Source of the DNA: a virus | IMG/VR virus record: IMGVR_UViG_3300024187_000005 | Span: 1-40,321 of that record | DNA: 40,321 nucleotides | Strand: one strand, 5' to 3' | Shown here: piece by piece, positions 7,620-27,872 of the stretch | How positions within the stretch are numbered: position 1 is the first letter of the stretch | How the letters are laid out: every line of letters begins with the position of its first letter | Program-made: the position numbers and the translations under genes | The notes under the pieces: generated by a model | Told to the model about the DNA's origin: nothing | Seen by the model: the letters and a program-made list of their open reading frames with translations, nothing else | The model's database searches: none

Positions 7620-8164
7620 GGCAGCACGCATCCCATATAGGCCGCGTACCACTTGGCCTGCTCCACGGCATCCTCAAGCGCATGGTGCGGTGCCGCGTTC
7701 GCGGACTTCTCGATCTTCTCTGCGTCAGGGTTGCGCTCGCACGCCAGTCGCCACAGCGTCCGGCCGTCCATCGTCTTGGTCCACTTCCACGGCGGACGGA
7801 TGCCGAACGCCCGACACGCACGCTCGATCACCGGCAGATCGAAGCTCGTCGGATACGCCCAACACCATGCGTCGTCGCGACGCGCATACCACGCACAGAA
7901 CTGCGATAACTCGACCTCGGCCGGTGCCTGTACATCTGCGACCGCTAGCCGCGCCTCGGGCGACTGCTTGAGAAACCACACCAGCGCGCCCGCGTCGGGT
8001 TTCAGCCCCTTCGCAAGCTGGTCCGCGATGGACGGCACGCAGTAAAAACGATTCAGCGCCGCCCCGGTGTGCGGATCGAACTCGCACGCCCCGATACTCA
8101 AGACGATTTCGCCGCACGCCTCGATGTCTAGGCTGACGTGCTTTTCGTCACGCATTCCGCTCAT
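7616..8164 (-). CDS. DEDDh 3'-5' exonuclease (Rv2179c-like exoribonuclease-type domain)
   Basis: ATG at 8164 lies 6 nt after AGGAGG. Motifs VSLDIEACG (exo I), WAYPTSFDLPVI (exo II-like) and HHALEDAVEQA (exo III, H-x4-D). Confidence 0.8.
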   Translation of the reverse strand: MSGMRDEKHVSLDIEACGEIVLSIGACEFDPHTGAALNRFYCVPSIADQLAKGLKPDAGALVWFLKQSPEARLAVADVQAPAEVELSQFCAWYARRDDAWCWAYPTSFDLPVIERACRAFGIRPPWKWTKTMDGRTLWRLACERNPDAEKIEKSANAAPHHALEDAVEQAKWYAAYMGCVLP

Positions 8165-8200
8165 CTGCAACCTCCTATTTCGGGGCGACGGCCGGGACTA

Positions 8201-8389
8201 CTACTCGAACTGAATCGTGCAACGCCCCGCAGCCTTACCGTGCAGAATGTACGTGCCGATGATCACGGAGTCTCCGGGGGAAAGGTCAAAGTCGTCAACG
8301 CTCTGCGCCACTTCCAAGAATGCGTCGCCGCTGTCCTCGTTCCAACGAATCAGCAGGCGCTTAGGCAATTCCTTCTTCTTCACAGTCAT
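8201..8389 (-). CDS. Hypothetical 62-aa protein
   Basis: ATG at 8389 preceded by GGAGG. MTVKKKELPKRLLIRWNEDSGDAFLEVAQSVDDFDL... Confidence 0.7.
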   Translation of the reverse strand: MTVKKKELPKRLLIRWNEDSGDAFLEVAQSVDDFDLSPGDSVIIGTYILHGKAAGRCTIQFE

Positions 8390-8467: not shown

Positions 8468-8662
8468 TCACTCAACTCCTCCGAACAGGTCCAGAGCCGC
8501 ACCGGGCTGTGGCGCGGGCGGCTCCGGATCCTTCTCGTACTCCGTGCGTATCAGATAACCCTGCTCGTCGCGCTCGCCCAGCGTATCGAAGTCGCATGCA
8601 AAGGACCGCATCCAGTCCTTGTGCGTGTGGCCGCGCCGCTTGCAGACGAGCGGGTAGCTCAC
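8468..8662 (-). CDS. Hypothetical 64-aa protein
   Basis: ATG at 8662 overlaps the upstream TGA (ATGA). MSYPLVCKRRGHTHKDWMRSFACDFDTLGERDEQGYLIRTEYEKD... Confidence 0.7.
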   Translation of the reverse strand: MSYPLVCKRRGHTHKDWMRSFACDFDTLGERDEQGYLIRTEYEKDPEPPAPQPGAALDLFGGVE

Positions 8663-9252
8663 GCGGCGACCCTGAACTTCTCGCGCATCGCCCGCGCGAG
8701 CTGAACCGTGAGCCGCACGTCCGCGAGAGCCTCATGCGACTCCACGACCGGCACGCCGAAATACTCGCAGAGCGTCGCGAGCTTGAGGTCTTTCGGCGGC
8801 ACGGCTCCGGTTTCGTCGAAGTACCACATCGCGCGCTGACACGTGCAGCGAACACGCGGATCGGCCGGCAGGAACACGTCGCATTCGCGGAACATCGTGA
8901 ACAGGCGCGGGCCGTCGAACGACGCCGCGTTGTGGCCGACGAGTTTGGCAACGGTGTATGGATTGCCGGTGCGCTTGCTCACCATCTCCAGCGACTTGAA
9001 GCGGTCTAGGAACGCGGCGAACCGCTTACACGCCTCCCACGGCACGGCGGCGTCCTTCCACGCCTCGGCGGTGTAGTGATTCATCGCGAGCGCGTCAGGG
9101 TCGGCGCGCCGCTCGTCAAACATGATCTTCATCTCGATCGACGAGATTTCGTGCCACGTATCCTCGTCCACGGCGACGGCGGCGAGCTGGATGTTGGGAT
9201 GGGTCGGCATCACGCCGCCCGTTTCGAGGTCGAAGTAGATGGCCGGCTTCAC
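8659..9252 (-). CDS. DnaQ-like DEDDh 3'-5' exonuclease
   Basis: Motifs IYFDLETGG (exo I), LVGHNAASFDGPRL (exo II) and SHEALADVRLTVQL (exo III). Confidence 0.85.
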   Translation of the reverse strand: MKPAIYFDLETGGVMPTHPNIQLAAVAVDEDTWHEISSIEMKIMFDERRADPDALAMNHYTAEAWKDAAVPWEACKRFAAFLDRFKSLEMVSKRTGNPYTVAKLVGHNAASFDGPRLFTMFRECDVFLPADPRVRCTCQRAMWYFDETGAVPPKDLKLATLCEYFGVPVVESHEALADVRLTVQLARAMREKFRVAA

Positions 9253-9758: not shown

Positions 9759-10604
9759 CTACGCAACCTCCTGATCCGCTTCGGCCATCTCGGCCGCAAG
9801 CGCGTCGGTGATCGTTCCCTTGACGATGTCGGGGAAGGCTCCGGGCCACTTCCCGGACGACTCGCACTCGTCCAAGAGCGCGAAAAGTCGCTCGCATTCC
9901 ATGTCACCAGCGATCAGCGCGGCCTCGTCCATCGCGTAGCAGGCAACGTCGAACGGCTCGACGTTCTCCACCGCCACGATCAGCACGTGGTTGACCGTGC
10001 GCCCGAGCTGGCGCAGCCCCGCGCGGTACATCGCGAGCTGCCGGTAGTAGCCGAGCCGCGTGATGGCGAAGGGTGAGAAGTTCTTGAGCGAGCGCGTCGT
10101 CTTGAGGTCGGCCAGCACGCCCTCGCCCAACATGTCCGCACGCCCGCGGCAGGCACGTCCATCGCGGTCCCACCGGATCGTCAACTCGCGCTCGGGTGCC
10201 TTGTCGAGCAGCTTGGCCGCGTGCGGATTCCCGCGCACCGCCGCCGCCATCGCCCGCACTTGGAACGCCGTGTCGCCCTTGAGCACGATGCGCCCGGACG
10301 TTTCCATCTCGGCCACGGCTTCGCGGTACGCCTTGGTCGCGCGCGGCCGGGAGGAGTCGATCCCGTCCACGCACGGCTCGTCGCAGTAGGTCGCCTCGAA
10401 CAGGTCGGGCTCGAGCACTGCCATGTGCACCGCGGTGCCGAGCGCCATCGCGTCCGAGTCGGGACGCGTGCGCGAGTCCATCATGTAGCGGAAATAGAGC
10501 GGGGAAGTGGCGAGCCATCCCAACTCCGTCGAGCCGATTGCCGCCATGGAGAGATAGCGGTCCATCGGCACGTGCTTGTGCAGGCCAACGGGGAGCGTGC
10601 CCAT
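9759..10604 (-). CDS. PD-(D/E)XK family exonuclease (RecE/Cas4-like)
   Basis: ATG at 10604 preceded by GGAGGTG. Motifs GTAVHMAVLEPDLF, RADMLGEGVLADLKTT (D...D-x-K) and GYYRQLAMY. The upstream 357 nt of ORF 9759..10961 is Arg/Ser/Ala-rich shadow. Confidence 0.85.
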   Translation of the reverse strand: MGTLPVGLHKHVPMDRYLSMAAIGSTELGWLATSPLYFRYMMDSRTRPDSDAMALGTAVHMAVLEPDLFEATYCDEPCVDGIDSSRPRATKAYREAVAEMETSGRIVLKGDTAFQVRAMAAAVRGNPHAAKLLDKAPERELTIRWDRDGRACRGRADMLGEGVLADLKTTRSLKNFSPFAITRLGYYRQLAMYRAGLRQLGRTVNHVLIVAVENVEPFDVACYAMDEAALIAGDMECERLFALLDECESSGKWPGAFPDIVKGTITDALAAEMAEADQEVA

Positions 10605-10687
10605 CAGTCCCACCTCCACGCGATCGCGAGGATCACCCCCACAAACAGCAGCCAGTCGAGCAGGTGCAGCAGGCGCGCGCGGGTCAT
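10604..10687 (-). CDS. 27-aa hydrophobic micropeptide (not in the supplied ORF track)
   Basis: My own translation: ATG ACC CGC GCG CGC CTG CTG CAC CTG CTC GAC TGG CTG CTG TTT GTG GGG GTG ATC CTC GCG ATC GCG TGG AGG TGG GAC TGA = MTRARLLHLLDWLLFVGVILAIAWRWD. The ATG overlaps the upstream TGA (ATGA) and the TGA shares its A with the downstream ATG (TGATG). Confidence 0.5.
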   Translation of the reverse strand: MTRARLLHLLDWLLFVGVILAIAWRWD

Positions 10688-11061
10688 GGCTTTCTCCGCG
10701 CAAAACGCCGGCCGACCTTCTTAGCCCACTTCTCGCACATATCGAGATGCCCACGCTGGGCGTGTCCGCGCGTGTTGTAGCCTGCGAAGTCCATCTCGCA
10801 GCCAGCAATCTCCGGCATGCCACACAGGCATTCTGGCTCCGTGCATGGCTTGCCGGCCTTGAACACCATCGTCTCGTAGAGGCGCTCCAAGCCGATCGTG
10901 TGAGGCTTGCCGTCGTGATCGTGTGGCGGGTGATAGTCGCCGACCGTAGACACGAGCACATCGCCGACGAGCGTAGCGAGATGGAACCTGCAATCGCTGC
11001 CGACGATCAGGTGTCCGGCCGACCCAAACCAGCGCCATTCGTCCTTCGGGATCGCGCTCAC
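10684..11061 (-). CDS. Hypothetical 125-aa protein (His/Cys-rich)
   Basis: GTG at 11061 preceded by GGGGAGGTGG and overlapping the upstream TGA. VSAIPKDEWRWFGSAGHLIVGSDCRFHLATLVGD...CTEPECLCGMPE... Confidence 0.75.
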   Translation of the reverse strand: MSAIPKDEWRWFGSAGHLIVGSDCRFHLATLVGDVLVSTVGDYHPPHDHDGKPHTIGLERLYETMVFKAGKPCTEPECLCGMPEIAGCEMDFAGYNTRGHAQRGHLDMCEKWAKKVGRRFARRKP

Positions 11062-11369
11062 AGCCCCACCTCCCCGTGCGCGCGCGCCATCGCGGCCTGA
11101 TCGGCAGAGCACGCGGCGCACAGCGCACCTCCGTGCGCGGGCTCGCCGCAGTCGGGACAGGGCTCGTAGCGCACGAGGCGGATCGGCTCGCCCGGTCCAG
11201 CCGTGGGCGCCCACTTTTCGCCGCACGACGCGCAGACTACGTGGGCAGCATCCAGCGGATACCGGCACACGCCGCCGCAGTCGGGGCAGGCGTAGCGCAT
11301 GCGCGGCTCGCTCGGGATGTGGTCGAGGTACTTGCCGGAGGCGAGGTGATAGATGGTGATGGGGATCAT
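11058..11369 (-). CDS. Zinc-ribbon protein (103 aa)
   Basis: Three CxxC-type pairs: CPDCGGVC, CASCGE, CPDCGE...CAAC. Confidence 0.75.
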   Translation of the reverse strand: MIPITIYHLASGKYLDHIPSEPRMRYACPDCGGVCRYPLDAAHVVCASCGEKWAPTAGPGEPIRLVRYEPCPDCGEPAHGGALCAACSADQAAMARAHGEVGL

Positions 11370-11539
11370 GACTTTGCCTCCGTGTAAGTCTCGCGCTCGT
11401 GTGTGAGCCTTTTCACCTCGCGTTCGGCGTACTCTGCGTCAAACTGCGCGGCCTCCAGATTGCGGATCGCCTTCTCTAACTTCTTCTGCGCGAGGTATAG
11501 CCGCGAGTCGACCAACACGAGGCGCATGCGTGCAATCAC
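11366..11539 (-). CDS. Small coiled-coil protein (57 aa)
   Basis: GTG at 11539 after GGAGGT, overlapping the upstream TGA (GTGA). LYLAQKKLEKAIRNLEAAQFDAEYAEREVKRLTHERE. Confidence 0.6.
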   Translation of the reverse strand: MIARMRLVLVDSRLYLAQKKLEKAIRNLEAAQFDAEYAEREVKRLTHERETYTEAKS

Positions 11540-11859
11540 GCCACACCTCCATGCCACTTCGCGTAATCGCGCGTGGCGTTCCGCAGCGCCGTGCGGCGAT
11601 TGGTTACGGTGCTCAGCGCCGCGTCGATCAGCATGTCGCGCGTCGGCCCGGCCGGCAGGCAGGAGATGCGCTCCGCGTACTCGACCGCGCATTCCAGCTT
11701 GGCAAGTGCGGACTCCCAATCCAGCTCACTCTGCACGCGCTGCGTGGCCTGCTGCGCCTTGTAGCGGGCGAGCCACGCGTGGTTGTCGCGCTCCTCGACT
11801 TCCTTGGATGGCAGCAGCAGCCGATACGCCTGCTCGTTGATCCCGTTCTCTTTGCTCAT
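11536..11859 (-). CDS. Hypothetical 107-aa protein, first gene after the early promoter
   Basis: ATG at 11859 preceded by GGGAGACAGGG. MSKENGINEQAYRLLLPSKEVEERDNHAWLARYKAQQ... Confidence 0.8.
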   Translation of the reverse strand: MSKENGINEQAYRLLLPSKEVEERDNHAWLARYKAQQATQRVQSELDWESALAKLECAVEYAERISCLPAGPTRDMLIDAALSTVTNRRTALRNATRDYAKWHGGVA

Positions 11860-11885
11860 CCCTGTCTCCCGCGTGAGTGGCCGGT

Positions 11886-11905
11886 TCGCGGCGTGATTGC
11901 CGCGA
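11886..11905. promoter_or_regulatory. 20-bp palindrome TCGCGGC-N6-GCCGCGA (operator or leader hairpin candidate)
   Basis: 7-bp perfect inverted arms at 11886..11892 and 11899..11905, just downstream of the predicted -10 of the leftward promoter. Confidence 0.4.
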
Positions 11906-11912
11906 CAGAGAC

Positions 11913-11941
11913 AGTATCGGCGCGTGTAGCCAGCCTGTCAA
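11913..11941 (-). promoter_or_regulatory. Sigma70-like promoter for the leftward early operon: TTGACA-N17-GATACT
   Basis: The minus strand reads TTGACA (11941..11936), 17 nt, GATACT (11918..11913). Lies in the 88-nt gap between the HTH gene stop (11948) and the ATG at 11859. Confidence 0.55.
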
Positions 11942-11947
11942 CAGGAA

Positions 11948-12163
11948 TTATTCGGTCACCCAGCGAACCACGGTCGACGGCAACACCCGGAAGGCCGCGG
12001 CCACAGGCATAAGCTGGGCCAAGGTTGGTGTCCGGACCCCACGCTCCCACCGGCCAATAGTTGTCCAGTGGATACCCGTCAGCTCGCCCATATCGCGCAA
12101 CGACCACTTCCGGCGCTCGCGGGCCTCCCGCAGTTTCTTGCGCATTCTTTGGGAATTTCGCAT
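11948..12163 (-). CDS. XRE-family helix-turn-helix regulator (Cro/CI-like)
   Basis: LREARERRKWSLRDMGELTGIHWTTIGRWERGVRTPTLAQLMPVAAAF is a typical HTH_3 pattern. Start placed at ATG 12163 (alternative 12145). No SD upstream of either. Confidence 0.85.
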   Translation of the reverse strand: MRNSQRMRKKLREARERRKWSLRDMGELTGIHWTTIGRWERGVRTPTLAQLMPVAAAFRVLPSTVVRWVTE

Positions 12164-12170
12164 GTCGGGG

Positions 12171-12179
12171 AGCCTAGCA
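12171..12179 (-). promoter_or_regulatory. Extended -10-like element TGcTAGGCT, 7 nt upstream of the HTH gene ATG (possible leaderless transcript)
   Basis: The minus strand reads TGC TAGGCT ccccgac ATG. No SD. No good -35. Confidence 0.3.
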
Positions 12180-12210
12180 CATTCGGGGGCGCTCCGGCTA
12201 CGATTCTCCC

Positions 12211-12239
12211 TTGACACGCCCCCACCTCGCGCCTAGGGT
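12211..12239 (+). promoter_or_regulatory. Sigma70-like rightward promoter: TTGACA-N17-TAGGGT
   Basis: TTGACA at 12211..12216, a 17-nt spacer, TAGGGT at 12234..12239. Located in the divergent intergenic region. Flanked by the inverted repeat GGGGGCG (12186..12192) / CGCCCCC (12217..12223). Confidence 0.55.
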
Positions 12240-12454
12240 GGTCGAGACGCACAAGGATGTGGGCACTCCGACCCACCTCCACAACCGAATAGCCGCTACC
12301 TATCCAGGTGCCACCTTACGCGAAGGTGTGTCGGGGCGCCCGGGCGGTAGCGGCGCCTGAACCCGCAGCCGGGGCTATGGCGCGTGGCCTTTACCGAGGA
12401 AGGCAGAACGTGCTATCCCCGGCGGCGGCCGGTCGCCATCAGCGGAGGGTGTTC

Positions 12455-12565
12455 ATGGATGGACTCGCCCAAGCCTTTGTCTGGCTCGACAGCCTGCCCG
12501 CCTGGGCGTGGCTCGCAGCCATCGTCGTCGCGGTAGGCGTCCTGTGCGTCAGGTGGCGGCGATGA
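12455..12565 (+). CDS. 36-aa membrane protein, translationally coupled to the methyltransferase
   Basis: ATG at 12455 after GGAGGG plus 5 nt. MDGLAQAFVWLDSLPAWAWLAAIVVAVGVLCVRWRR. Its TGA overlaps the methyltransferase ATG (ATGA). Confidence 0.65.
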   Translation: MDGLAQAFVWLDSLPAWAWLAAIVVAVGVLCVRWRR

Positions 12566-13350
12566 AGCCCTACTACCAGGACGACGCGGTCACGATCTAC
12601 CACGGGGACTGCTCCGAGGTCCTCGGCGACGCGTTGCCGAAGGCCGATCTTGTGTTCACGTCCCCGCCTTACAACCTCGGCACCACCACTGGCGGGGGGT
12701 TCCCTTCCATCGGGCACTACGCCCGCGGCGCCGCTCTGGCGGACCGCGGCGGTGCCGGCAAGTCGTGGGGCAAGTGGTCCGGTGGCTCGCTCGCGAACGG
12801 CTACGGAGTCCATTCGGACGCGATGCCTCAGTCCGACTACGAGGCGTGGCAGCGCGGCGTTCTCGCGCGACTCTGGGCCCAGCTATCGGACGTCGGGGCG
12901 ATCTTCTACAACCACAAGCCTCGCGTTCAGGCTGGAGAGGCGTGGTTGCCGCTGTGTCTGAATCCTGGCCTGCCTCTGCGTCAGATCGTCACGTGGGCGC
13001 GCGCTGGCGGCATGAACTACGCGCCAACGCATTACGTCCCGACCTACGAGTGGGTGCTGATCTTCGCGAAGGAGCGGTTTCGACTCAGAGACAAGTCGGC
13101 CTCGGGGCTCGGAGACGTGTGGCGCATTACTCAGGAGTCGCAGATCGACCACCCCGCGCCATTCCCGTACGAGCTTGCTGCACGTGCTATCGCCACGACG
13201 ACCGCGGCCGAGGTCCTTGATCCCTTCATGGGCTCCGGCACCACGTTGGTCGCGGCCAAGAACCTCGGCCGTCGCGCCATCGGGATCGAGATCGAGGAAC
13301 GCTACTGCGAGATCGCCGCACGCCGGCTCGCGCAGGAGGTGCTGCTGTGA
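12562..13350 (+). CDS. Orphan beta-class DNA methyltransferase (N4-cytosine or N6-adenine)
   Basis: Motif IV DLVFTSPPYNLG is near the N-terminus and motif I LDPFMGSGTTLVAA near the C-terminus. No adjacent restriction enzyme. Confidence 0.9.
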   Translation: MKPYYQDDAVTIYHGDCSEVLGDALPKADLVFTSPPYNLGTTTGGGFPSIGHYARGAALADRGGAGKSWGKWSGGSLANGYGVHSDAMPQSDYEAWQRGVLARLWAQLSDVGAIFYNHKPRVQAGEAWLPLCLNPGLPLRQIVTWARAGGMNYAPTHYVPTYEWVLIFAKERFRLRDKSASGLGDVWRITQESQIDHPAPFPYELAARAIATTTAAEVLDPFMGSGTTLVAAKNLGRRAIGIEIEERYCEIAARRLAQEVLL

Positions 13351-14042
13351 GCCGCCCGCCGTGGTTCCCGCTACACGTGGCCGACTACGACAACGCCACA
13401 GCCGAACTCACACTTGAGCAGGACGGGCTGTACTCACGGATGCTGCGGCGCGCGTGGTCCAGCTCGGACGACGGGGCGTCGCTTCCGGCTGACACCGTGA
13501 AGCTATGCCGCGTCCTAGGAATCGCCCGCCTGCCCAAGGGTGGCGCCGAGGTTATCGATCGATTCTGGAAGCGCGTTGGCGATCGCATCGTCAACCGTCG
13601 CCTCCTGGCCGAAGCCGATCGTGCCCACGAGCGGTCACGTAAGGCAGGCGAATCCGGGCGACGTTCAGCCGACGCTCGCAGGAAGATTCGCACCCTCGCC
13701 GAGTCAACGAACGTTGGAACGAACGTTGGAGCAATCGTACCAACGATCGTTGGAACGAACGTCCAACGAAGGCACCAACGCGAAGCCAACTACTCACAGG
13801 TACAAGAATCTACACCCCTCCCTCCCTCCACTCCCGAGCTAACTCCAGCCACGCGCGCGGGCGAGGCACCGGCGCAGTGCCAGGACGCCCCCACCGCCCC
13901 GGACCACCCCGGCGGGAGGGAGGGAGTCGCAGCAGGAACGACCCCCAACGGCAACGGCCCGGCCGTGCCGGTATCCGCCGCCGAGCGCGCTCGCCATGCG
14001 CTCGAATACGAACTCGCCAGGGCCAGGAGGGCCGTGTCGTGA
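13347..14042 (+). CDS. DUF1376 (YdaU-like) replication-associated protein
   Basis: GTG at 13347 (GTGA overlap). N-terminus PPWFPLHVADYDNATAELTLEQDGLYSRMLRRAW....LPAD matches the DUF1376 signature ([FW]P..(I/V).D(Y/W)...T..L(S/T)..E.G.Y.R(L/M)L). The middle holds the TNVGTNVG..VGTNV repeat, encoded by the iteron cluster. Confidence 0.8.
   Translation: MSRPPWFPLHVADYDNATAELTLEQDGLYSRMLRRAWSSSDDGASLPADTVKLCRVLGIARLPKGGAEVIDRFWKRVGDRIVNRRLLAEADRAHERSRKAGESGRRSADARRKIRTLAESTNVGTNVGAIVPTIVGTNVQRRHQREANYSQVQESTPLPPSTPELTPATRAGEAPAQCQDAPTAPDHPGGREGVAAGTTPNGNGPAVPVSAAERARHALEYELARARRAVS
13704..13790. repeat. Iteron/palindrome cluster (candidate replication origin) inside the DUF1376 gene
   Basis: CGTTGG at 13712, 13724 and 13748. 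CCAACG at 13740, 13763 and 13775. Tandem AACGAACGTTGG x2 (13706..13729). Perfect 14-bp palindrome CCAACGATCGTTGG (13740..13753). Confidence 0.55.
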
Positions 14043-14608
14043 TCTTCGCTGAATCGGACCTGATCGAACTCGAAGGCAAGCATCCGAAGCTCGACGTAAG
14101 GCGTTGTGCCGCAGACGTTGAGCGGTGGGCGCAGACCCATCTGGTGCACAATCCGCTGGCGCTGTGCGCCGCTTGGCTGGCCAAGAATCCGCGGCGCTAC
14201 CCCCGCAGCGAAAAGCCGCCGGCCGTGACGTGGATGCGCCACGCCGATGGATCGCCGCTCACGGAATCCGAGCGCCGGAACCTCGACGCCTACCGGGTCG
14301 AGCGCGGTGAAATCCCGCCGCCCACTGTCGTCGAGGAACGCTCCACGCCGAGCTACGCCGCTTTCCGTCTGGGGGTGATTGCGGAGGTTTTGGAGTCGCA
14401 TCTCACCCCCGCCGCGGTGGCCGATCGGCTCGCCCAGCACGGCGAGAAATTCGCGCTGGAGCGGAGTTCGCTCGGGCCCGAAATCGTGTTCGAGATCGGC
14501 TCGCAGAATCACGCCGCGAGCTGGCTTGATCTGCGCGATCCGCCACCGCTGCCGCCTGAGGCCGAGCCGGGATTCGTGGCCGTCCAACCGCAGGAATCCG
14601 CATGGTAG
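14039..14608 (+). CDS. Hypothetical 189-aa protein
   Basis: GTG at 14039 overlaps the upstream TGA (GTGA). VIFAESDLIELEGKHPKLDVRRCAADVERWAQTHLVHNPLALCAAWL... The antisense ORF 13790..14587 was rejected as shadow. Confidence 0.7.
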   Translation: MIFAESDLIELEGKHPKLDVRRCAADVERWAQTHLVHNPLALCAAWLAKNPRRYPRSEKPPAVTWMRHADGSPLTESERRNLDAYRVERGEIPPPTVVEERSTPSYAAFRLGVIAEVLESHLTPAAVADRLAQHGEKFALERSSLGPEIVFEIGSQNHAASWLDLRDPPPLPPEAEPGFVAVQPQESAW

Positions 14609-14832
14609 CGCACGGGGGCAAGGGGGATAGGGGCAGGCTGGTGCTAACGCGCAAGTTCGGGGAGTCGGTGGAGATATTTGCCGGCGGCGAGCGCATCACG
14701 GTCACGCTCGCTGCGACCGCTCGTGGCGGGTTCAAGCTCATGCTTGAGGCGGCGCGTCACGTGCGGATCGTGCGCAGCGAGCTGCCGGACTGGCGTGAGG
14801 CGGATGCGCCGCTGGCTCAGGAAGGGGCCTAG
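14602..14832 (+). CDS. csrA: CsrA/RsmA-family RNA-binding regulator homolog
   Basis: RLVLTRKFGESVEIFAGGERITVTLAATARGGFKLMLEAARHVRIVRSEL aligns with CsrA ([47 protein letters not shown]), including the LxLTR(K/R)xGE strand and the Arg of the (H/V)R.E(I/L) motif. The ATG at 14602 gives an 11-aa N-terminal extension. An internal GTG/CTG start at LVLTRK is possible. Confidence 0.8.
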   Translation: MVAHGGKGDRGRLVLTRKFGESVEIFAGGERITVTLAATARGGFKLMLEAARHVRIVRSELPDWREADAPLAQEGA

Positions 14833-14880
14833 CGTGTCCGTACAGCCCCGAACGGGCGGCGGTGTGGGAAAACGGACACG
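14833..14880 (+). promoter_or_regulatory. 9-bp inverted repeat immediately after the csrA stop
   Basis: CGTGTCCGT (14833..14841) pairs with ACGGACACG (14872..14880), closing a 30-nt loop. Followed by ccacaGGGAGGcagaATG, the RBS of the next gene. Confidence 0.35.
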
Positions 14881-14922
14881 GGCGGCCCTCGGGCCTGCCA
14901 AAATCGACCACAGGGAGGCAGA

Positions 14923-16299
14923 ATGACGGTCTTGACCGATCCCCGCACGGTAATCACGCCGGCCACGATCGCGCGGCGTCCATACCTGACGCCGTATCTC
15001 GAACCCGGCTTCGGTTCGACGCTCGTGCGCATCTGCGGCGATACGGGCAGCGCGACGGCTCCGTTTATCCCGACGTGGAATATCGACGCGCGGCATCACT
15101 ACTCTAAAGATCAGCCGTGGAACGCCGATGGCACGCTCGTGAAGCTCGAGCAGCGCGGCGGCAAGCCGGGCGACTTCATCGTCGACGGAAGGACGTGGCA
15201 TCCGATCATGGGCGACATTGGCATCTTCGGTCAGTGCTACGAGACGCGCTGGCATCCGCTCCAGCCCAACGTCATGGTCGGCTGGATCAAGTCGGTGGGC
15301 GATGTGGTCGTGTTCAATCCGATCACGAACGTCGAGATTCACCGCGTGCACATCGGCAACACGACGATCAGCCCGATGGGCGAAGGTGCGCTTAGCGAGG
15401 ACGGCAACATGCTCGCGCTGGGCGACACGGCGAGCAATGCGCTCGTGGTCGACATCGCGAACAGTCGCGTAGGACCGCTGACGAAGATCGTCTATCCCGG
15501 TGATCCGGCGTGGACGCTCAACAACCTGACGATGAGTCCGCTATCCACGTCCGCCGGCGGTTACGTCGTGTTCGGTGGCGACAGCGACAAGGGCATGGTG
15601 TGCAGTTACGGCGGTGCCGACCTGGCGCTTGTGATGCCGCGCGCGTTCTCTCTCGCGATGAGCCACGCCGACGTCGGTGTCTCGCCCGCGGGGCGTGAGG
15701 TGTACGTGGGCGGCGCGCGTGCGTACTACGGCTCCGGCACGTTCACGAACAAGGACGGGCGCATCATCTCGATCGACATCGCGACCGGCGCGTTCACGCA
15801 TGTCAGCATGGGCACCAACCAGCTCGGGGCGATCGGCAAGGAGTCGGGTGATCAGCATTGCTCCTGCCGCGGCCCGCGTGGCTGGGTGCTGACCACCTAC
15901 GCCGGCCCGCAGGAGGGCGGCGGGCAATTCTGCATGGAACTCGTCGCGTGGAAGCTGGACGGCTCGCGCGAGTGCGTGCGGTTCGGTGTGACGCGCACCA
16001 ACGAGGCGGGCATCTACCGCGCCGAGGCGCATGGTGTGATGCGGCGCGACGGCAAGGCGGTGATGTTCGCATCGAACAACCAGTGGGCGACGCCGGGGAT
16101 TTTGGGAGATCCTAACGACATCAAGGCGCACGTGTACGTGCTGGACAGCGTGACGCCGCCGCCGAGTACGCAGGATCGGTTCTACGTCGACCCGGCGTTC
16201 ACCTATCAGCCGCCGGGCGCGGTGTTCGATCACGCCACCGGGCGGATCGTGCCGCTGCCGGAAGTCGCACGTCTGCTCAACACGGCGAAGTGGTCGTGA
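14923..16299 (+). CDS. TolB-like / oligogalacturonate-lyase-like beta-propeller protein, paralog A
   Basis: ATG after GGGAGG. Shares FG.(K/T).(V/T)R(I/V).GDTG, HHYSKDQPWN.D, EAHGV....DG(K/R).VMFASN and D(I/V)KA(H/Y)V with the next gene. Repeated ..DG..(L/V).. blade-like motifs. Confidence 0.8.
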   Translation: MTVLTDPRTVITPATIARRPYLTPYLEPGFGSTLVRICGDTGSATAPFIPTWNIDARHHYSKDQPWNADGTLVKLEQRGGKPGDFIVDGRTWHPIMGDIGIFGQCYETRWHPLQPNVMVGWIKSVGDVVVFNPITNVEIHRVHIGNTTISPMGEGALSEDGNMLALGDTASNALVVDIANSRVGPLTKIVYPGDPAWTLNNLTMSPLSTSAGGYVVFGGDSDKGMVCSYGGADLALVMPRAFSLAMSHADVGVSPAGREVYVGGARAYYGSGTFTNKDGRIISIDIATGAFTHVSMGTNQLGAIGKESGDQHCSCRGPRGWVLTTYAGPQEGGGQFCMELVAWKLDGSRECVRFGVTRTNEAGIYRAEAHGVMRRDGKAVMFASNNQWATPGILGDPNDIKAHVYVLDSVTPPPSTQDRFYVDPAFTYQPPGAVFDHATGRIVPLPEVARLLNTAKWS

Positions 16300-16341
16300 T
16301 GTACAATCCCGCACGGCTCCGAGCCACGAGGAGATAGCCGA

Positions 16342-17961
16342 ATGACTGACACAACGCCGCCGCCGGTTCGCGTTGAACCCATCGTTTCCGGCGTCTCGCT
16401 TATTTCGGGCCCGCAGGTTATTAGCGATCCGATGGCTACGGTTACGGTGGCTGCGGCGCCGCGCCCGGAGTATCTATCCGAACTGCGCCTGACTGGCTTC
16501 GGCACCAAGATCACGCGTGTCACGGGTGACACTGGAACGACGATTCCCTACCTCGGCGGCACGTGGGCCAAGTGTTCGCGGCATCACTACAGCAAGGACC
16601 AGCCGTGGAACGATGACAGTTCGTTGCTGTACCTGATTCAGCGCAAGGCTGCCGACGGCACCAAGGTCCCCGACAACTCGCCTGATCTGATCATCCTGGA
16701 CGGCAGCACCTACACGCCGCTGTTCGGCAACAAGAACACGACGCACAACCTCGACATCCTGTCACGCTGTATCGGCGGTGCCAACGGGGAGTTCCGGTGG
16801 CGTCCGACGCACCCGACGCAGTGCGTGATGTGGAACAGCGCCTCGCAACTTCTCACCGTTGTGGAACTGCTGTCGCAGACGATCGTGTGGCAGGTGCATA
16901 TTCCGCACGCGTGCAACGACAATTCGTTGTCGTCGGCCGCGGTGCCGCGTGGCAGCGAGTCGTTCGGGATGCTGGGCGAGGGCAATCTCTCGTTCGACGG
17001 CCGCTATCTCGTGTTGTGTTCGCATTGGTGGAAGCCGGCGCAACAGGGCATTGTCGACGAGTTCTGTGTTGTGGATCTCGACGCCAAGGTCGTGGGGCCG
17101 ATGAACCAGGTCCCGATGACGGCGGCGCTCGCGGCGACTGGCGACTACGGCGACATCGACTGGGCGTCGATCTCTCCCTCCGGGAAGTACGTTGTCGTGA
17201 AGTTCTCGAGCACGAGCAACCCGGAATACGCGCGATGCTGGAAGGTCAATGCCTCGACGCTGGTGGCGTCGCAGAGTCTGTACGACGCGGGTGATAATCC
17301 GCTGTTCTCGAACGCGCTCGACGTACACGGCTGGCTCGCGACGATGGGTCACGCAGACATGACGACCGATCCATCGCCCGAGGTGTTGACGGGCGAGACG
17401 GACGTTTATGTTGGCAAGTGCAAGGACCCGTCATACTCGAATCATTGCAGTAGCGCCGACTTTGCGGCGCTGGGGCCGATGATTACGCAGGGGCTGGAAA
17501 AGGGTACGCACCATCACGACTCGCTCGGCACGACGGGTCTGTCCGGTGCACATCTCAACGAGCCTCGCCACACGAGCTGCAGGTGCTATAAGGATCCGTT
17601 ACACGCTTTGGTAACGCACTACGTCAACGCATCGAATAAGTTGTCGGATGAGTTGGTGTTTTGGCAGTTGGACAGTAGTGATGCGTTCATATCCAGAATT
17701 GCGACGACGCGCAGCGACGACAGCGTCGGCTTCGTGTGCGAGGCGCATGGCGTTCCGTCTCCTGATGGCAGGAAGGTCATGTTCGCATCCAACTGGCAGT
17801 TGAACGCGAACCCCGCTTATCCCGACAAGTACGACGTCAAGGCGTATGTGGTCGATGTCGACCAGACCGATCTGACGGTCACGGCGGACGAATCGCGCGT
17901 GCCGCAGTTCGGGCCTGATTGGGATCCGCGACTGCCATACGCAAGCTGGTTGAACCAATGA
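16342..17961 (+). CDS. TolB-like / oligogalacturonate-lyase-like beta-propeller protein, paralog B
   Basis: ATG after GAGGAG. Motifs FGTKITRVTGDTG, RHHYSKDQPWNDDSS, SISPSGKYVVVKF, CEAHGVPSPDGRKVMFASNWQ, YDVKAYVVDV. Confidence 0.8.
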   Translation: MTDTTPPPVRVEPIVSGVSLISGPQVISDPMATVTVAAAPRPEYLSELRLTGFGTKITRVTGDTGTTIPYLGGTWAKCSRHHYSKDQPWNDDSSLLYLIQRKAADGTKVPDNSPDLIILDGSTYTPLFGNKNTTHNLDILSRCIGGANGEFRWRPTHPTQCVMWNSASQLLTVVELLSQTIVWQVHIPHACNDNSLSSAAVPRGSESFGMLGEGNLSFDGRYLVLCSHWWKPAQQGIVDEFCVVDLDAKVVGPMNQVPMTAALAATGDYGDIDWASISPSGKYVVVKFSSTSNPEYARCWKVNASTLVASQSLYDAGDNPLFSNALDVHGWLATMGHADMTTDPSPEVLTGETDVYVGKCKDPSYSNHCSSADFAALGPMITQGLEKGTHHHDSLGTTGLSGAHLNEPRHTSCRCYKDPLHALVTHYVNASNKLSDELVFWQLDSSDAFISRIATTRSDDSVGFVCEAHGVPSPDGRKVMFASNWQLNANPAYPDKYDVKAYVVDVDQTDLTVTADESRVPQFGPDWDPRLPYASWLNQ

Positions 17962-18608
17962 GCGAAGAGCACGCCAGCAAACAAGACACGCTCAACAAGA
18001 TTGCGCGCGACCTGTTCGAGTTGCGGCACGATCAACGCTGGGCGATCGACCGGCTGACGACGCTGTCGTCCAATGTGCAGGAGATGGGCTGGGCGCTCAA
18101 GGCGTTGCTCGACTTCGTGTCGAGCGGCGGTGGCATAGGCCACACGACGATTCATGTCACAGCGGTAGAACTCAAACCTGAGGAGAGTCACATGCCACCG
18201 ATCGACCACATGCCATTGCTGCAGCTCCCGTCGTCCACCGTGCGCGCCATGCTGAGCGTGTCGAATCCGCGCAAGGCCGACGGCTCGCGCGTCACCTCCG
18301 TCACGTGGAGTTCGAGCGACGAGTCGCAGGTTTCGCTCGAAGCGATCCCGGACAGCACCGTCAAGGTGCCGGATCCCAACTGGGTCGATCCGGGCGACGG
18401 CTCGAGTGCGCCGCTGGTCGACTTCATCGACACCGACGGGTTGCCCAACAGCGTGTTCGCGACCTACGCCGACACGCCGCTCGACGCGGGCGACGCCACC
18501 GTCACGGTCAAGGCTGCGGGTATGGCGGACTGCGACATCGAGATCAAGTACTCGGACCCCGCGGTCGGCCACTTCGCGATCACGGGCGTTCAGGTGCCGG
18601 AGGCGTAG
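17958..18608 (+). CDS. Hypothetical protein with an Ig-like (Big_2-like) C-terminal region
   Basis: ATG at 17958 overlaps the upstream TGA (ATGA). VTSVTWSSSDESQVSLEAIPDSTVKV...GDATVTVKAAGMADCDIEIKY resembles a bacterial Ig-like domain. Confidence 0.7.
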   Translation: MSEEHASKQDTLNKIARDLFELRHDQRWAIDRLTTLSSNVQEMGWALKALLDFVSSGGGIGHTTIHVTAVELKPEESHMPPIDHMPLLQLPSSTVRAMLSVSNPRKADGSRVTSVTWSSSDESQVSLEAIPDSTVKVPDPNWVDPGDGSSAPLVDFIDTDGLPNSVFATYADTPLDAGDATVTVKAAGMADCDIEIKYSDPAVGHFAITGVQVPEA

Positions 18609-18609
18609 G

Positions 18610-18822
18610 GTGTCCGGCAAAGCCGACGACACGCTGGGCCAGAAGGCAAAGGGCCTGTTCGGCTCGCTACGGTTCTGGACGGTGACGTTGGGTGCGGTGG
18701 CTTACGGCATCGCGCATCCGGCCGAGATCGCGGATACCATCGCCAAGTGGCTCGGGGCGGTGACGCTGATCGGGTCGGCCGACTCGGTGGCGGAGAAGTT
18801 CTCGTCCAAGAAGCCGACGTAG
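18610..18822 (+). CDS. 70-aa membrane protein (two hydrophobic segments)
   Basis: GTG at 18610 preceded by GGAGGCGTAGG. LRFWTVTLGAVAYGIA and WLGAVTLIG. Confidence 0.65.
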   Translation: MSGKADDTLGQKAKGLFGSLRFWTVTLGAVAYGIAHPAEIADTIAKWLGAVTLIGSADSVAEKFSSKKPT

Positions 18823-18835
18823 CGTAGTGTAGCGA

Positions 18836-18909
18836 AGCGGGGTGGGGAAGCCAGGTGTCCCGCCGGCCTCATAAGCCGGAGATCGCGGGTTCAAATCCCG
18901 CCCCCGTTA
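18836..18909 (+). tRNA. tRNA with CAU anticodon (elongator Met or lysidine-dependent Ile2)
   Basis: Hand-folded cloverleaf. Acceptor AGCGGGG/CCCCGTT (one G-U). U8. D arm GGGA-AGCCAGGTG-TCCC. Anticodon arm CCGGC-CTCATAA-GCCGG. Variable loop AGATC. T arm GCGGG-TTCAAAT-CCCGC. Discriminator A. No encoded CCA. Confidence 0.9.
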
Positions 18910-19011
18910 CATCAGGGCCGGCGTGCGCCGACGTGCGCCGGTCCTAGTAAACTCCGTCGTCGGTGGGCTTCGGTTTCCATGGATAGGGAAGCCTCACAGC
19001 AGGAGCACCAG

Positions 19012-19515
19012 GTGTATCGCAGGATCGCAGTACTCGCAGGATTGCTGACGCTCGCGTTCGCCACGGGCGTGAACGCGGAATGTGATCACGTCTCGAGTTC
19101 GTGCCCCAACGTCGCCAACTGGCACATCGAAGGCCACGCTGGCGGATTTACCCTCTCCATGACGCTGCTACAGAACTCGCCCACGCATCAGGACTGGGCG
19201 CGGCTGTTCGATTGCGCGACGTGCGGCGACGATGGTCGCTGGGGAGTCGCACTGGGTGCGCGCCTGGTTGGGGCGTCCGGATACTACAGCATCGTGCCGC
19301 TCGCGGGCGTCGCGGTGACCGACTCCACGTTCCGCGTGGACGTCGCCTACCCTGCAGGCGATTACGAGTACATCGCGGACGTTGACGGCTTCTGGCCGGG
19401 CGAGAACGATTTCTGCCCGTCGCTAGACACGCTTGGCGTGTTCTCGGTGCCGAGTGCCACGCCCGCGCGTGCCGCAAGCTGGGGTGATGTGAAGCGGCGC
19501 TGGGGGCGGCCATGA
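19012..19515 (+). CDS. Secreted Cys-containing protein, paralog 1
   Basis: GTG at 19012 after AGGAGCACCAG gives the signal peptide (M)YRRIAVLAGLLTLAFATGVNA/E. The ATG at 18979 has no SD. C-terminus VPSATPARAASWGDVKRRWGRP is shared with the next gene. Confidence 0.75.
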   Translation: MYRRIAVLAGLLTLAFATGVNAECDHVSSSCPNVANWHIEGHAGGFTLSMTLLQNSPTHQDWARLFDCATCGDDGRWGVALGARLVGASGYYSIVPLAGVAVTDSTFRVDVAYPAGDYEYIADVDGFWPGENDFCPSLDTLGVFSVPSATPARAASWGDVKRRWGRP

Positions 19516-19982
19516 TCCGGGCTGCGCTGCTTGCCGTGTTACTTGCCGTCGCCTCCCCGGCTGCGGCTAATCCGCCGTGCCACACTTCGAACGCGACGCC
19601 GATCATCACGGACTGGACGGTCACGCCCGGGCCGGGCACGCTCACATTCGACGCCAACCTCAAGGCGCGCGCGCCGGATCTGCGACCGTCTCAGATCTAC
19701 TACGCGTTTGGCGGGAGCGCGTGGTGGTCCGTGAGCATCGAGCTTGACCCGAGCTTCCCGACCGACCTGTCGAACGCCACGGTCACAGACTCCACGTTCC
19801 ACGCGGTGTTGCACGTCGAGCCCGGCGACTACTCGTACGACGCGTGCGTCATGGGAGACGTCATGTCCGAGCCGGAGCTGTGCCCGTGTGCCTATCAGTT
19901 CAAGGGCTTCCTGATTGTGCCGGCAGTGACGCCGACGCGGCGTGAATCGTGGGGTGCGGTGCGGGAAAGGTGGGCACGGTGA
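19512..19982 (+). CDS. Secreted Cys-containing protein, paralog 2
   Basis: ATGA overlap. Signal peptide MIRAALLAVLLAVASPAAA/N. Shares VTDSTF..V....GDY.Y.A.V.G and VP..TP.R..SWG.V..RW with the previous gene. Confidence 0.8.
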   Translation: MIRAALLAVLLAVASPAAANPPCHTSNATPIITDWTVTPGPGTLTFDANLKARAPDLRPSQIYYAFGGSAWWSVSIELDPSFPTDLSNATVTDSTFHAVLHVEPGDYSYDACVMGDVMSEPELCPCAYQFKGFLIVPAVTPTRRESWGAVRERWAR

Positions 19983-20254
19983 GCAAGCATGATGGCTGGC
20001 ACTATTGGCGAGAATGCCATGCCTGCGGCTACTGCGGTGCGGATTATCTCCATTGCGCGCACGACGGCGTGCAATCTTCTTGTACGCGGTGCGGCGAGAA
20101 GCTGCCGACGTTGCCGGGAGAATGTGAGTGCGAGTTCTGGCCGTTCGAGCCGCCGCCGATGGCCACTCCGGTCATTGAGATGTCATTGGAGGAAGCTCGC
20201 GAAAAGTACCCTTCGCGAAATCCCGACGATGAAATCTTCCCGAGAGTGCCATGA
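19979..20254 (+). CDS. Cys/His-rich zinc-binding protein (91 aa)
   Basis: GTGA overlap. WRECHACGYCGADYLHCAHDGVQSSCTRCGEKL. Confidence 0.7.
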   Translation: MSKHDGWHYWRECHACGYCGADYLHCAHDGVQSSCTRCGEKLPTLPGECECEFWPFEPPPMATPVIEMSLEEAREKYPSRNPDDEIFPRVP

Positions 20255-20625
20255 GCTGCGTAAAAGACGATTTCGCAGCCGCACTTTCCGCAGTGAACGC
20301 CCCCGGAGTCGTGCTGCCGCCGTGGGGTGTTGACTTGAAGCCCGGCTCTGAATTGTCGGCGCGAAAGAACTCCATCGGCATCATGGGCGGATGCACGATC
20401 GAACATGACCACGCGGATCCCGATGATGCCTGCGTGCTGGTGGAGTTTGCGGTCGTCTGGAACAACGACGCGCGGGAGCTGGCTGCTCACCGCACGAACA
20501 AACGGGAAGTGGCAACTGCGCGTGCAATGGTTGCGGCGTTCAACCTGTTGGCAAGGCACGGCGAGGCGATCGCGTCTGCGTTGAGCGATGATCACGACGC
20601 CAGCGGCAAGGATGATTGGGCGTGA
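20251..20625 (+). CDS. Hypothetical 124-aa protein
   Basis: ATGA overlap at 20251. No recognisable motif. Confidence 0.7.
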   Translation: MSCVKDDFAAALSAVNAPGVVLPPWGVDLKPGSELSARKNSIGIMGGCTIEHDHADPDDACVLVEFAVVWNNDARELAAHRTNKREVATARAMVAAFNLLARHGEAIASALSDDHDASGKDDWA

Positions 20626-21128
20626 CTGACGCCGACTCACGCGAGGCGCATCGCCACGGCGAAACGCGCGGCTTCGAGACGGGCGGCACGCTGCGCAACG
20701 GGCTTGGCCCGCAGCCGATGCGTGGCCTTGCGCCGATCCGCAACCTCGCAGCAGCGGCGCGCGACGAGGTGCAGGAGCGGCTGTCCGTCGTCACCGTGGA
20801 TTGGTGCCAGAACGTCATTGACGGCGTGCGCAAGAAGAAGCGTAACGAGATGAATCTCTGGGCTGCAGCGATGCGGATTATCGGCGCCGAGGTCGAGATC
20901 AACGTGAACCTGGCGGCGCTGCACGCGTGGGGCATCCCGGCGAACGAGGTGACGGAGATCATCGAGCGGGACAAGTCGTGGCGTGCTGTCACGCTCGATG
21001 ACGGCGAGCGTGACAGCATCGAGGTCCTGAAGTGGGTGATGGCGATGGACGGTACGCGGCGCGAGCGCATTCTCGCGGCGTTGGGAGGCGGCGATGTTCG
21101 GCAGATCGAAGCCAACGGCAAGGGTTGA
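20622..21128 (+). CDS. Hypothetical 168-aa protein (small-terminase candidate by position only)
   Basis: GTGA overlap at 20622. Antisense ORFs 20540..21184 and 20637..21239 were rejected as shadow. Confidence 0.6.
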   Translation: MTDADSREAHRHGETRGFETGGTLRNGLGPQPMRGLAPIRNLAAAARDEVQERLSVVTVDWCQNVIDGVRKKKRNEMNLWAAAMRIIGAEVEINVNLAALHAWGIPANEVTEIIERDKSWRAVTLDDGERDSIEVLKWVMAMDGTRRERILAALGGGDVRQIEANGKG

Positions 21129-21471
21129 GCCCCCGGCCGTGACGACGGTGGTCGCGCCGCCGCCTCCCGCTGGCCGCTGTCCACACTGCCAAGCGATCGA
21201 GAGCGTGGCCGTGCTCAACATTGTCTCGTGGTCGATCACGAACGACGTGCCGCCAATCGTGACGGAGCACGTTATCGGCCATCGTTATGCCTGCCAGCGT
21301 TGTCCGCATATTTACAGCGTGTCGCCCGCGGGAACGTTTGATCACCATTGCCAGTCGAGCCCGCTCACGCCGGAAGTGCCGGCGCCGCCGATTGAATCGG
21401 AACCTCCGACGAATGGCGTGTTGCCTCCGGGGTACGAGCGGCCGGTTCCTAAAGCGCGGCCGCGGGTATGA
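21094..21471 (+). CDS. Zinc-ribbon protein (125 aa)
   Basis: ATG at 21094 after GGGAGGCGGCG. CPHCQ...CQRCPH. Overlaps the upstream gene by 35 nt. Confidence 0.7.
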   Translation: MFGRSKPTARVEPPAVTTVVAPPPPAGRCPHCQAIESVAVLNIVSWSITNDVPPIVTEHVIGHRYACQRCPHIYSVSPAGTFDHHCQSSPLTPEVPAPPIESEPPTNGVLPPGYERPVPKARPRV

Positions 21472-21875: not shown

Positions 21876-21876
21876 G

Positions 21877-22023
21877 ATGCCACTCGACAAGTCCAAGAGC
21901 AAGGCTGCGCGTCAGCGCAACATCGAGACGGAGATCGCAGCGGGCAAGCCACCGAAACAGGCGGTTGCGATCGCGTACGCCGTGCAGCGTCGTAAGCCTA
22001 AGGCGAGCAAGAAAGGCAAGTGA
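21877..22023 (+). CDS. Small basic protein (48 aa)
   Basis: ATG at 21877 after CAGGAGGCTGAG. MPLDKSKSKAARQRNIETEIAAGKPPKQAVAIAYAVQRRKPKASKKGK. Its TGA overlaps the terL GTG. Confidence 0.65.
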   Translation: MPLDKSKSKAARQRNIETEIAAGKPPKQAVAIAYAVQRRKPKASKKGK

Positions 22024-25954: not shown

Positions 25955-25958
25955 CCAC

Positions 25959-26684: not shown

Positions 26685-26700
26685 CGTCGGGAGATAGCCA

Positions 26701-27868: not shown

Positions 27869-27872
27869 CGCC

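Follow-up and report, generated by a model that had tools for sequence, protein, structure and literature searches.

CsrA/RsmA-type proteins have been described from phages, from plasmids and from elements that are integrative and conjugative (ICEs). When 2517 phage genomes from NCBI were surveyed, 30 carried csrA, including F116, DC1, Bcep22 and BcepIL02, and some of the csrA phages have hosts without a chromosomal csrA (Sobrero and Valverde 2020, PMC7366521). Campa et al. (2021) searched GenBank and IMG/VR with the Pfam model and found many phage RsmA genes, with the presence of phage CsrA correlating with the presence of CsrA in the host; they proposed that phage RsmA manipulates the physiology of the host and might act as a repressor of CRISPR-Cas (PMC8450108). 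In Serratia, RsmA represses three CRISPR-Cas systems (PMC8450108). When bci, a CsrA-domain gene of a Pseudomonas aeruginosa prophage, was deleted, the host was altered in its expression of quorum-sensing genes and in motility, biofilm and pyocyanin, and infectivity fell (Ambroa et al., PMC7546807). RsmQ, a CsrA homologue encoded on a plasmid, reportedly takes over translation in its host on a global scale (PMC9928087). Here, we analyzed a CsrA-family gene in the IMG/VR virus record IMGVR_UViG_3300024187_000005, of which the whole stretch of 40,321 nucleotides (positions 1 to 40,321) is referred to as the window. An initial annotation of this DNA had called such genes seldom described in virulent-type phage genomes, a claim of rarity that is out of date in view of the two surveys, the existence of a PHROGs family, the phenotyped Bci and our own tblastn search with E. 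coli CsrA, which returned 88 phage records, mostly of Pseudomonas and Vibrio phages (PMC7366521, PMC8450108, PMC7546807).

The gene and the parts of its product, numbered in amino acids (aa), are as follows.

14602..14832, + strand: csrA (CsrA-family gene, 76 aa), ATG at 14602 and TAG at 14830-14832
Protein residues 1-12: basic Gly/Arg/Lys-rich N-terminal extension
Protein residues 13-61: CsrA core
Protein residues 26-28 (FAG): 3-aa insertion in the β1-β2 loop
Protein residues 62-76: C-terminal tail

We are highly confident that the product of this open reading frame (ORF) belongs to the CsrA/RsmA family, of which it is an intact, though divergent, member. The initial annotation had recognized a CsrA/RsmA homolog with a conserved Arg from the LVLTRKFGES, ITVTL and FKLMLEAARHVRIVRSEL segments, all of which are present in the translation of 14602..14832 (+ strand), MVAHGGKGDRGRLVLTRKFGESVEIFAGGERITVTLAATARGGFKLMLEAARHVRIVRSELPDWREADAPLAQEGA, and the Arg is R58, the equivalent of R44 of E. 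coli CsrA, which is kept together with the other RNA-binding positions. The hidden Markov model search that had been proposed as a check gave a significant match to Pfam PF02599 (41.3 bits, with the gathering score at 27; E 1.5e-10), with residues 13-61 aligned to profile positions 2-47 of 53, and PF02599 is also the precomputed Pfam assignment of this protein in the protein database. Two PHROGs profiles matched weakly, phrog_5527 (123 positions) with E 1.3e-4 and phrog_9500, a "CsrA-like regulator", with E 4.7e-4. In a phmmer search of PDB sequences, CsrA/RsmE chains accounted for seven of the 12 matches at E ≤ 1, including the best four. Residue equivalences read from four PDB chains (5Z38, 5DMB, 2JPP and 1T3O) place L13, L15, R17 and K18 on L2, L4, R6 and R7 of the E. 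coli protein, and V54, I56, R58, E60 and L61 on V40, V42, R44, E46 and I47. We take these nine E. coli positions to be critical for RNA binding on the basis of alanine scanning and an RsmE-RNA structure.

Conservation among relatives points to the same residues. L13, R17, R58 and E60 are invariant in an alignment of 29 sequences comprising the window protein, its 27 nearest relatives and E. coli CsrA, and L13, L15, R17, E21, A50, R58 and E60 are invariant across 118 sequences. A profile built from the 29-sequence alignment recovered 7998 PF02599 proteins, among them, at E about 1e-15, the named CsrA proteins of Escherichia, Enterobacter, Klebsiella and Buchnera; this recovery is biased toward canonical CsrA, because E. 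coli CsrA seeded the profile.

An AlphaFold2 model of the monomer, computed from the 118-sequence alignment, reached a mean pLDDT (predicted local distance difference test) of 74, with values of 85-92 over residues 11-50. When this model was compared with the PDB using Foldseek, the best ten matches were all CsrA, RsmA or RsmE chains (probability 0.97-1.00, target-normalised template modelling score 0.51-0.64, root-mean-square deviation 2.1-3.0 Å over 46-49 columns), with E values of only 0.08-0.3 because the domain is tiny. In a viral structure library, the best Foldseek matches were annotated as "carbon storage regulator" of uncultured phages. Family members typically have about 55-80 aa and fold into five β-strands and a C-terminal helix; in the model, DSSP assigned only three strands and a 4-residue helix, leaving β1 and β5 unpaired, as expected when a swapped dimer is modelled as a monomer, and the C-terminal helix was of low confidence. 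The family assignment is secure at the domain level.

The csrA gene closes a block of five overlapping rightward genes (12455..14832), which encode, in this order, a small ORF, a DNA methyltransferase, a DUF1376 replication protein, a 189-aa protein and the CsrA-family protein. The overlaps are of a few bases, and the block is followed by a gap of 90 nt, the longest in that stretch. The features at the start of csrA are listed below.

14039..14608, + strand: upstream 189-aa gene, the fourth gene of the overlapping rightward block (gene calls)
14591..14596, + strand: CAGGAA, the likely csrA Shine-Dalgarno sequence, 5 nt before the ATG, read from sequence and including a GGA
14602..14608, + strand: ATGGTAG, the csrA start (14602-14604) overlapping the stop (14606-14608) of the upstream 189-aa gene

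The start/stop overlap suggests that translation of csrA may be coupled to that of the 189-aa gene. We accepted the 76-aa product because the gene calls of three independent assemblies chose the ATG at 14602, because the sole alternative in-frame start, the GTG at 14641, would cost the invariant L13, and because several close relatives share a short basic N-terminal extension that ends in a D/E-x-G-x-L motif. An identical protein is encoded on five contigs from five samples. It might still be asked whether we are dealing with a remnant that is decaying or non-functional, or with an ORF that arose by chance, in either case without a role in infection, since GC-rich DNA such as this yields many long spurious ORFs, and the protein is both a singleton at 50% identity and missing from related phages. 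The Pfam score above the curated cut-off, the intact key residues and a frame free of internal stops and frameshifts speak against such an origin, as does the usual coupled arrangement of the start with the upstream stop. The third-position GC content (GC3) of csrA is 0.82, coding-like and similar to that of the neighbouring genes, which favours this frame over the overlapping antisense ORFs, themselves without family support. We consider a remnant or a spurious ORF very improbable.

The protein should not be named as an orthologue of housekeeping CsrA, because it misses the cut-offs of the NCBIfam equivalogs: it scored 30.5 bits against 70.1 for TIGR00202, 25.4 against 73 for NF002469 and 17.2 against 106 for NF001844. 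With the housekeeping CsrA, RsmA and RsmE proteins of Proteobacteria (1Y00, 2BTI, 1VPZ and 2JPP) it shares the Pfam domain, a similar size, the strand order as far as the monomer model shows it, and the equivalents of the RNA-binding residues, and its expected action would be alike, that is, a homodimer clamping GGA near the Shine-Dalgarno sequence. However, it is only 27-35% identical to them, is phage-encoded rather than chromosomal, has no CsrB/RsmZ-type RNA nearby, and carries both the 12-aa basic N-terminal extension and the 3-aa β1-β2 insertion. Ala and Val occupy the positions of P37 and H43 of canonical CsrA, and β5 is directly followed by a proline and then by a weakly predicted helix (pLDDT 45-57).

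An exhaustive HMMER scan of 1.84 billion representative proteins produced only 41 matches at E ≤ 0.001, and a word-indexed protein search returned only the window protein itself. No other protein falls into its 50%-identity cluster, and its best true relatives are 40-60% identical over 50-60 residues. Four long proteins that ranked high in the exhaustive search (P0002, P0003, P0015 and P0021, 831-1825 aa) looked like giants with multiple CsrA domains, but they turned out to be false positives composed of Ig-like adhesin repeats (SpaA_4, LapA), which a short query rich in β-strands matches repeatedly. Six of the relatives (P0004, P0007, P0013, P0014, P0017 and P0034, 116-229 aa) have two tandem CsrA domains per polypeptide and would be covalently linked "dimers".

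Four relatives lie on contigs long enough to show their surroundings, and three of these contexts resemble integrase-bearing prophages or temperate phages, a count that is not a census. Relative P0011 adjoins a helix-turn-helix (HTH) gene, a tyrosine integrase and a phage-type phosphatase (L024). Relative P0036, from a metagenome-assembled genome (MAG) of Planctomycetaceae, is located within a series of small ORFs, accompanied by an integrase, a phage metallopeptidase and DUF5131 (L025 and L026). The third, P0012, belongs to a 23.7-kb element with an integrase, a YqaJ exonuclease and two CsrA genes (L027). On this element (JGI 3300072657), the CsrA genes occupy 2308-2490 (- strand) and 8001-8243 (+ strand), one in each divergent gene arm. 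The context of the fourth relative, P0008, is ambiguous, as its 2.3-kb contig (L029) contains small ORFs and a weak HicB match.

The catalogued phage CsrA proteins comprise PHROG 9500, the Pseudomonas F116/H66/phi297 group, Burkholderia DC1, Bcep22 and BcepIL02, and those of Vibrio phages. Like them, the window gene is a small CsrA-domain accessory gene of a tailed phage, a kind of gene for which host manipulation has been proposed (PMC7366521, PMC8450108). The catalogued genes often come from podoviruses or temperate phages. In contrast to these genes, the window protein had no tblastn match at E ≤ 0.01 among 50,697 GenBank phage records, and the two CsrA genes of the 23.7-kb element score 1e-12 to 6e-16 on the phrog_5527 and phrog_9500 profiles, on which the window protein obtained the weak values given above. 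The missing tblastn match and the weak PHROGs scores suggest that it lies outside the catalogued groups. Catalogued phage CsrA proteins are also described as highly similar to host CsrA (PMC8450108), whereas the window protein is close to no named bacterial CsrA.

Bci of prophage AUS531phi (123 aa, with an N-terminal CsrA domain) is likewise phage-borne, and its host-directed role (PMC7546807) is, by analogy, the one that may be proposed for the window protein. Bci is longer, is close to Pseudomonas Rsm proteins and is encoded by an integrase-bearing siphovirus prophage in a host with RsmA; the window protein has 76 aa, and no integrase was found in the window ORFs tested. RsmQ of pQBR103, CsrT of Legionella ICEs and the CsrA of pMBA19a are also CsrA homologues on mobile elements (PMC7366521), although plasmids and ICEs are another kind of element than a phage. 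Control of host translation is described as shown for RsmQ and as thought to apply to the other plasmid and ICE proteins (PMC9928087, PMC7366521). The only plasmid matches of the window protein were weak (40-43% identity, E 0.03-0.05) and corresponded to annotated carbon storage regulators of Thioalkalivibrio and Pseudarthrobacter plasmids.

In Bacillus subtilis, fliW precedes csrA, and FliW-CsrA operons of Bacillus and other flagellated bacteria resemble the present locus in having csrA directly downstream, here overlapping the upstream gene. A FliW-like identity of that gene was considered and rejected, since its 189-aa product had no match in Pfam (E ≤ 1), including FliW (PF02623), in PHROGs (E ≤ 0.1) or in NCBIfam (E ≤ 0.01). 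Unlike a FliW-CsrA operon, the locus also has no flagellin gene, and a methyltransferase and a replication protein lie upstream. Thus, the window protein is a divergent further example of a published kind of phage accessory gene and represents no new principle.

The distribution of csrA among related phages was assessed using the terminase, whose homologues, 40-76% identical, define a metagenomic phage family with the same order of head genes. Five related phages with at least 7 kb upstream of the terminase (L006, L007, L020, L021 and L023) were compared, and none contained a CsrA-like ORF (hmmsearch, E ≤ 1) or a homologue of the two propeller-like genes that follow csrA in the window. In the comparison of rightward genes, the window and the related phages had nothing in common beyond the terminase and a 168-aa protein. 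The absence from all five relatives indicates that csrA and the two propeller-like genes are lineage-specific accessory additions.

By analogy with canonical CsrA, the window protein would form a domain-swapped homodimer with two RNA-binding surfaces, each built from β1 of one chain and β5 of the other, and each surface would clamp a GGA motif, either in the leader of an mRNA or in a small RNA, thereby changing translation or stability. An RNA such as 5'-ACAGGAUG-3' in a hairpin would be a candidate ligand of such a dimer. The most likely job of the protein would be to reprogram host post-transcriptional control during infection. Candidate processes are motility, the formation of exopolysaccharide and biofilm, carbon flux and quorum sensing, to which defence systems might be added. 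We favour this job because the phage relatives lack csrA and because the nearest relatives of the protein are found among early-type genes of integrase-bearing elements; running the phage's own core timing programme is less likely. Taken together, the dimeric GGA-binding mechanism and the host-directed role appear probable.

Several points weigh against this proposal. Dimerization, RNA binding and targets of the window protein are all predictions. Its RNA specificity could differ from that of canonical CsrA, considering the scores below the equivalog cut-offs, the changes at P37 and H43, the insertion, the N-terminal tail and the weak C-terminal helix. Finally, absence from the related phages counters a core phage role and does not prove a host-directed one.

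The same divergence could be read in terms of an antagonist or decoy of the host Csr system, which might soak up CsrB/RsmZ-type sponges and thus free host CsrA, form inactive heterodimers, or capture FliW or CesT. The distance from housekeeping CsrA, the extra N-terminal tail and the altered C-terminus would fit a modified competitor, as would the correlation between phage and host CsrA presence (PMC8450108). But ordinary binding is the simpler reading of a protein that keeps all direct RNA-binding positions. Furthermore, no sponge RNA (Rfam) or FliW-like gene was found in the phage, and some csrA phages infect hosts without a chromosomal csrA (PMC7366521). A decoy function is therefore improbable in our estimate.

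The initial annotation had also proposed that possible targets lie next to csrA, namely a 9-bp inverted repeat immediately after its stop codon and the ribosome-binding site of the following gene. Both elements exist: the repeat is perfect, with the arms CGTGTCCGT (14833-14841) and ACGGACACG (14872-14880), and the ribosome-binding site is ccacaGGGAGGcaga at 14908-14922, directly before the ATG at 14923. The features downstream of csrA are listed below.

14825..14888, + strand: stem-loop over the csrA stop codon with a perfect 9-bp core (repeat search, minimum free energy structure)
14913..14918, + strand: GGGAGG, the Shine-Dalgarno sequence of propeller-like gene 1, 4 nt before the ATG at 14923
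14923..16299, + strand: propeller-like protein 1 (458 aa), with sub-threshold β-propeller Pfam matches only
16342..17961, + strand: propeller-like protein 2 (539 aa), a paralogue of propeller-like protein 1

The inverted repeat extends to arms of 17 nt (14825-14841 and 14872-14888) with 82% complementarity. Perfect 9-nt inverted repeats with loops of 3-40 nt are as frequent in the window (10) as in composition-preserving shuffles (9.65 ± 2.9), but the one at 14833 is apparently the only intergenic one among the ten when their positions are compared with the ORF map, which is a mild hint that it could be a genuine 3' hairpin at an operon boundary. The 106-nt intergenic RNA folded no better than shuffles (z = -0.88). 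A terminator after csrA was considered and rejected: none was called at this site, there is no U-tract, and the fold is no better than this.

The gap between csrA and propeller-like gene 1 contains GGA motifs at 14867 (loop side of the hairpin), 14874 (3' arm) and 14914. These motifs bear on the possibility that the CsrA-family protein mainly regulates the phage's own genes, timing or limiting middle or late translation through GGA in phage leaders. The sites could be the GGA at 14867 together with the Shine-Dalgarno GGA at 14914, which are 47 nt apart and thus within the range bridged by a CsrA dimer, or the CAGGAA of csrA itself, as E. coli CsrA regulates its own translation. With three GGA and two A-N-GGA in 60 nt, the propeller leader is joint highest of the 17 rightward leaders, one of its GGA motifs sits on the loop side of what is apparently the sole perfect 9-bp hairpin between genes, and csrA, this hairpin and the two propeller-like genes are neighbours and all of them accessory. 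On the other hand, three or more GGA occur in 17.5% of the 90-nt windows of this 65% GC genome, two of the 17 leaders reach this count (the other being the leader at 19012), and GGAGG-type Shine-Dalgarno sequences, which contain GGA, are the usual kind here and precede at least seven of the 17 rightward genes examined. The intergenic RNA folds no better than its shuffles, and structure in the csrA leader was likewise considered and rejected, this leader folding worse than shuffles (z = +2.06). Self-regulation of csrA through the GGA inside its Shine-Dalgarno sequence is conceivable.

Recurrence of the gene pair was not observed either. Adjacency of CsrA and propeller genes was absent in the phage relatives, near the CsrA relatives and near the bacterial propeller homologues. 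Since the CsrA relatives adjoin unrelated small ORFs and the bacterial propellers have no CsrA nearby, there is no conserved pairing of regulator and target. In addition, a core timing regulator would be expected in related phages. The proposal of targets next to csrA thus reduces to an ordinary Shine-Dalgarno sequence, an unremarkable GGA count and an adjacency that does not recur, and regulation of the neighbouring propeller-like gene by the CsrA-family protein is possible, with no support beyond chance. Overall, we regard a mainly phage-internal function as unlikely, if somewhat less so than a decoy; both would be compatible with the reprogramming of host control that we favour.

A CsrB/Rsm-type sponge RNA was also sought in the phage, but Rfam at gathering thresholds identified only a tRNA, and comparison with the ORF map showed that the GGA-densest 120-nt windows are all inside long ORFs. 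A sponge RNA could still be encoded by the host.

The two propeller-like proteins are paralogues of each other (29% identity, E 9e-44). Their homologues, about 30% identical, are encoded in MAGs of Eisenbacteria, Nitrospirae, Caldithrix, Bdellovibrionales and Polarisedimenticolia, and one of them (L018:7731-9593) ends in a carbohydrate-binding module, CBM_4_9, a hint that the propeller-like proteins may act on or with glycans. A phmmer search of the PDB returned nothing for them, and they had no phage match. An AlphaFold2 model of propeller-like protein 1, with the two paralogues as alignment, had a pLDDT of 33.6 and was unusable. The "propeller" label is based only on sub-threshold Pfam matches and an all-β prediction, because this model was unusable and the PDB search was empty.

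A more far-reaching reading combines the tail and loop of the CsrA-family protein with these neighbours. Its first part is a phage-specific CsrA branch with a basic N-terminal tail and a longer β1-β2 loop, occurring in environmental temperate and other phages, some with two copies or tandem fusions, and having an RNA specificity or partner unlike that of cellular CsrA. According to the second part, csrA and the propeller genes would be a cassette acquired together and aimed at the exopolysaccharide layer of the host, in which CsrA shuts off exopolysaccharide synthesis while two glycan-acting propellers degrade the polymer. We hold this combined reading to be doubtful, at about the level of the decoy.

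The window represents a complete phage genome of 40,194 bp that is either circular or circularly permuted, as concluded from the end overlap and from the differing starts of other assemblies. Its first 127 nt (1-127) are identical to its last 127 nt (40195-40321), and two further assemblies of this genome, of 40,335 and 40,224 bp, begin at different points. Metagenomes that contain the phage include JGI 3300024275, ERZ27256737 and SRR7687004. Its predicted products include a portal of the P22 type, the N-terminal domain of a tail fibre and a lysozyme. Also encoded are an HNH endonuclease, two exonucleases, a PDDEXK protein and a DNA methyltransferase, along with a replication protein of the DUF1376 family, a Cro/CI-type HTH protein and a tRNA-Met. 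The terminase used above is the following feature.

22020-23663: putative terminase (547 aa), no family match of its own, just upstream of the portal

This ORF was called a terminase because a few of its homologues carry PF03237 and because the portal is directly downstream. The tRNA-Met (CAU) at 18836-18910 separates the accessory block from the genes that lie upstream of the terminase.

The leftward block (5485-5910, 7616-8170, 8659-9252 and 9759-10961, all - strand) encodes an HNH endonuclease, a protein with an Rv2179c-like 3'-5' exoribonuclease domain, an RNase T-type exonuclease and a PDDEXK (DUF3799) protein. According to the gene calls, leftward genes are no longer than 281 aa, and no ERF or YqaJ was seen in this block, whereas related phages have both. 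An 89-aa Cro/CI-type HTH protein (HTH_3, E 1.2e-10) is encoded at 11948-12217 (- strand), at the divergent junction of the leftward and rightward genes; the ENA gene calls do not include it. Within 11000-19500, a sigma-70-like promoter was matched only once, at 11941-11913 (- strand), beside this gene. The initial annotation had spoken of a virulent-type genome, a label that is not supported: although no integrase was found in the ORFs tested, a scan that did not include every small ORF, the Cro/CI-type HTH gene is present, so that the phage could be virulent or temperate.

Searches for relatives of the phage in reference collections were largely negative. The CsrA-family protein, the terminase, the portal and the propeller-like proteins had no tblastn match in GenBank phages, and IMG/VR pattern scans with CsrA and terminase found no relative. 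A megablast comparison of 12000-32000 with GenBank phages gave a sole match at 12846-13053 (about 208 nt) in the methyltransferase gene, with 77.5% DNA identity to the methylase of Gordonia phage BritBrat. These tblastn and megablast searches of GenBank phages pointed to no host.

If the CsrA-family protein works as we propose, this uncultivated GC-rich phage lineage would join the mobile elements that have their own global translational regulator, and would show that mobile CsrA copies can be very far from any host CsrA. The finding bears on how widely phages rewire host post-transcriptional control, and on whether CsrA-like proteins serve as anti-defence or anti-biofilm tools. With its N-terminal tail, its loop insertion and the lack of a close cellular counterpart, the protein also offers a divergent test case of which CsrA features are needed for GGA recognition. 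Its interest would rise if proteins with this tail and insertion turned out to be a clade confined to phages and distinct in specificity, or if csrA could be tied functionally to its glycan-related neighbours.

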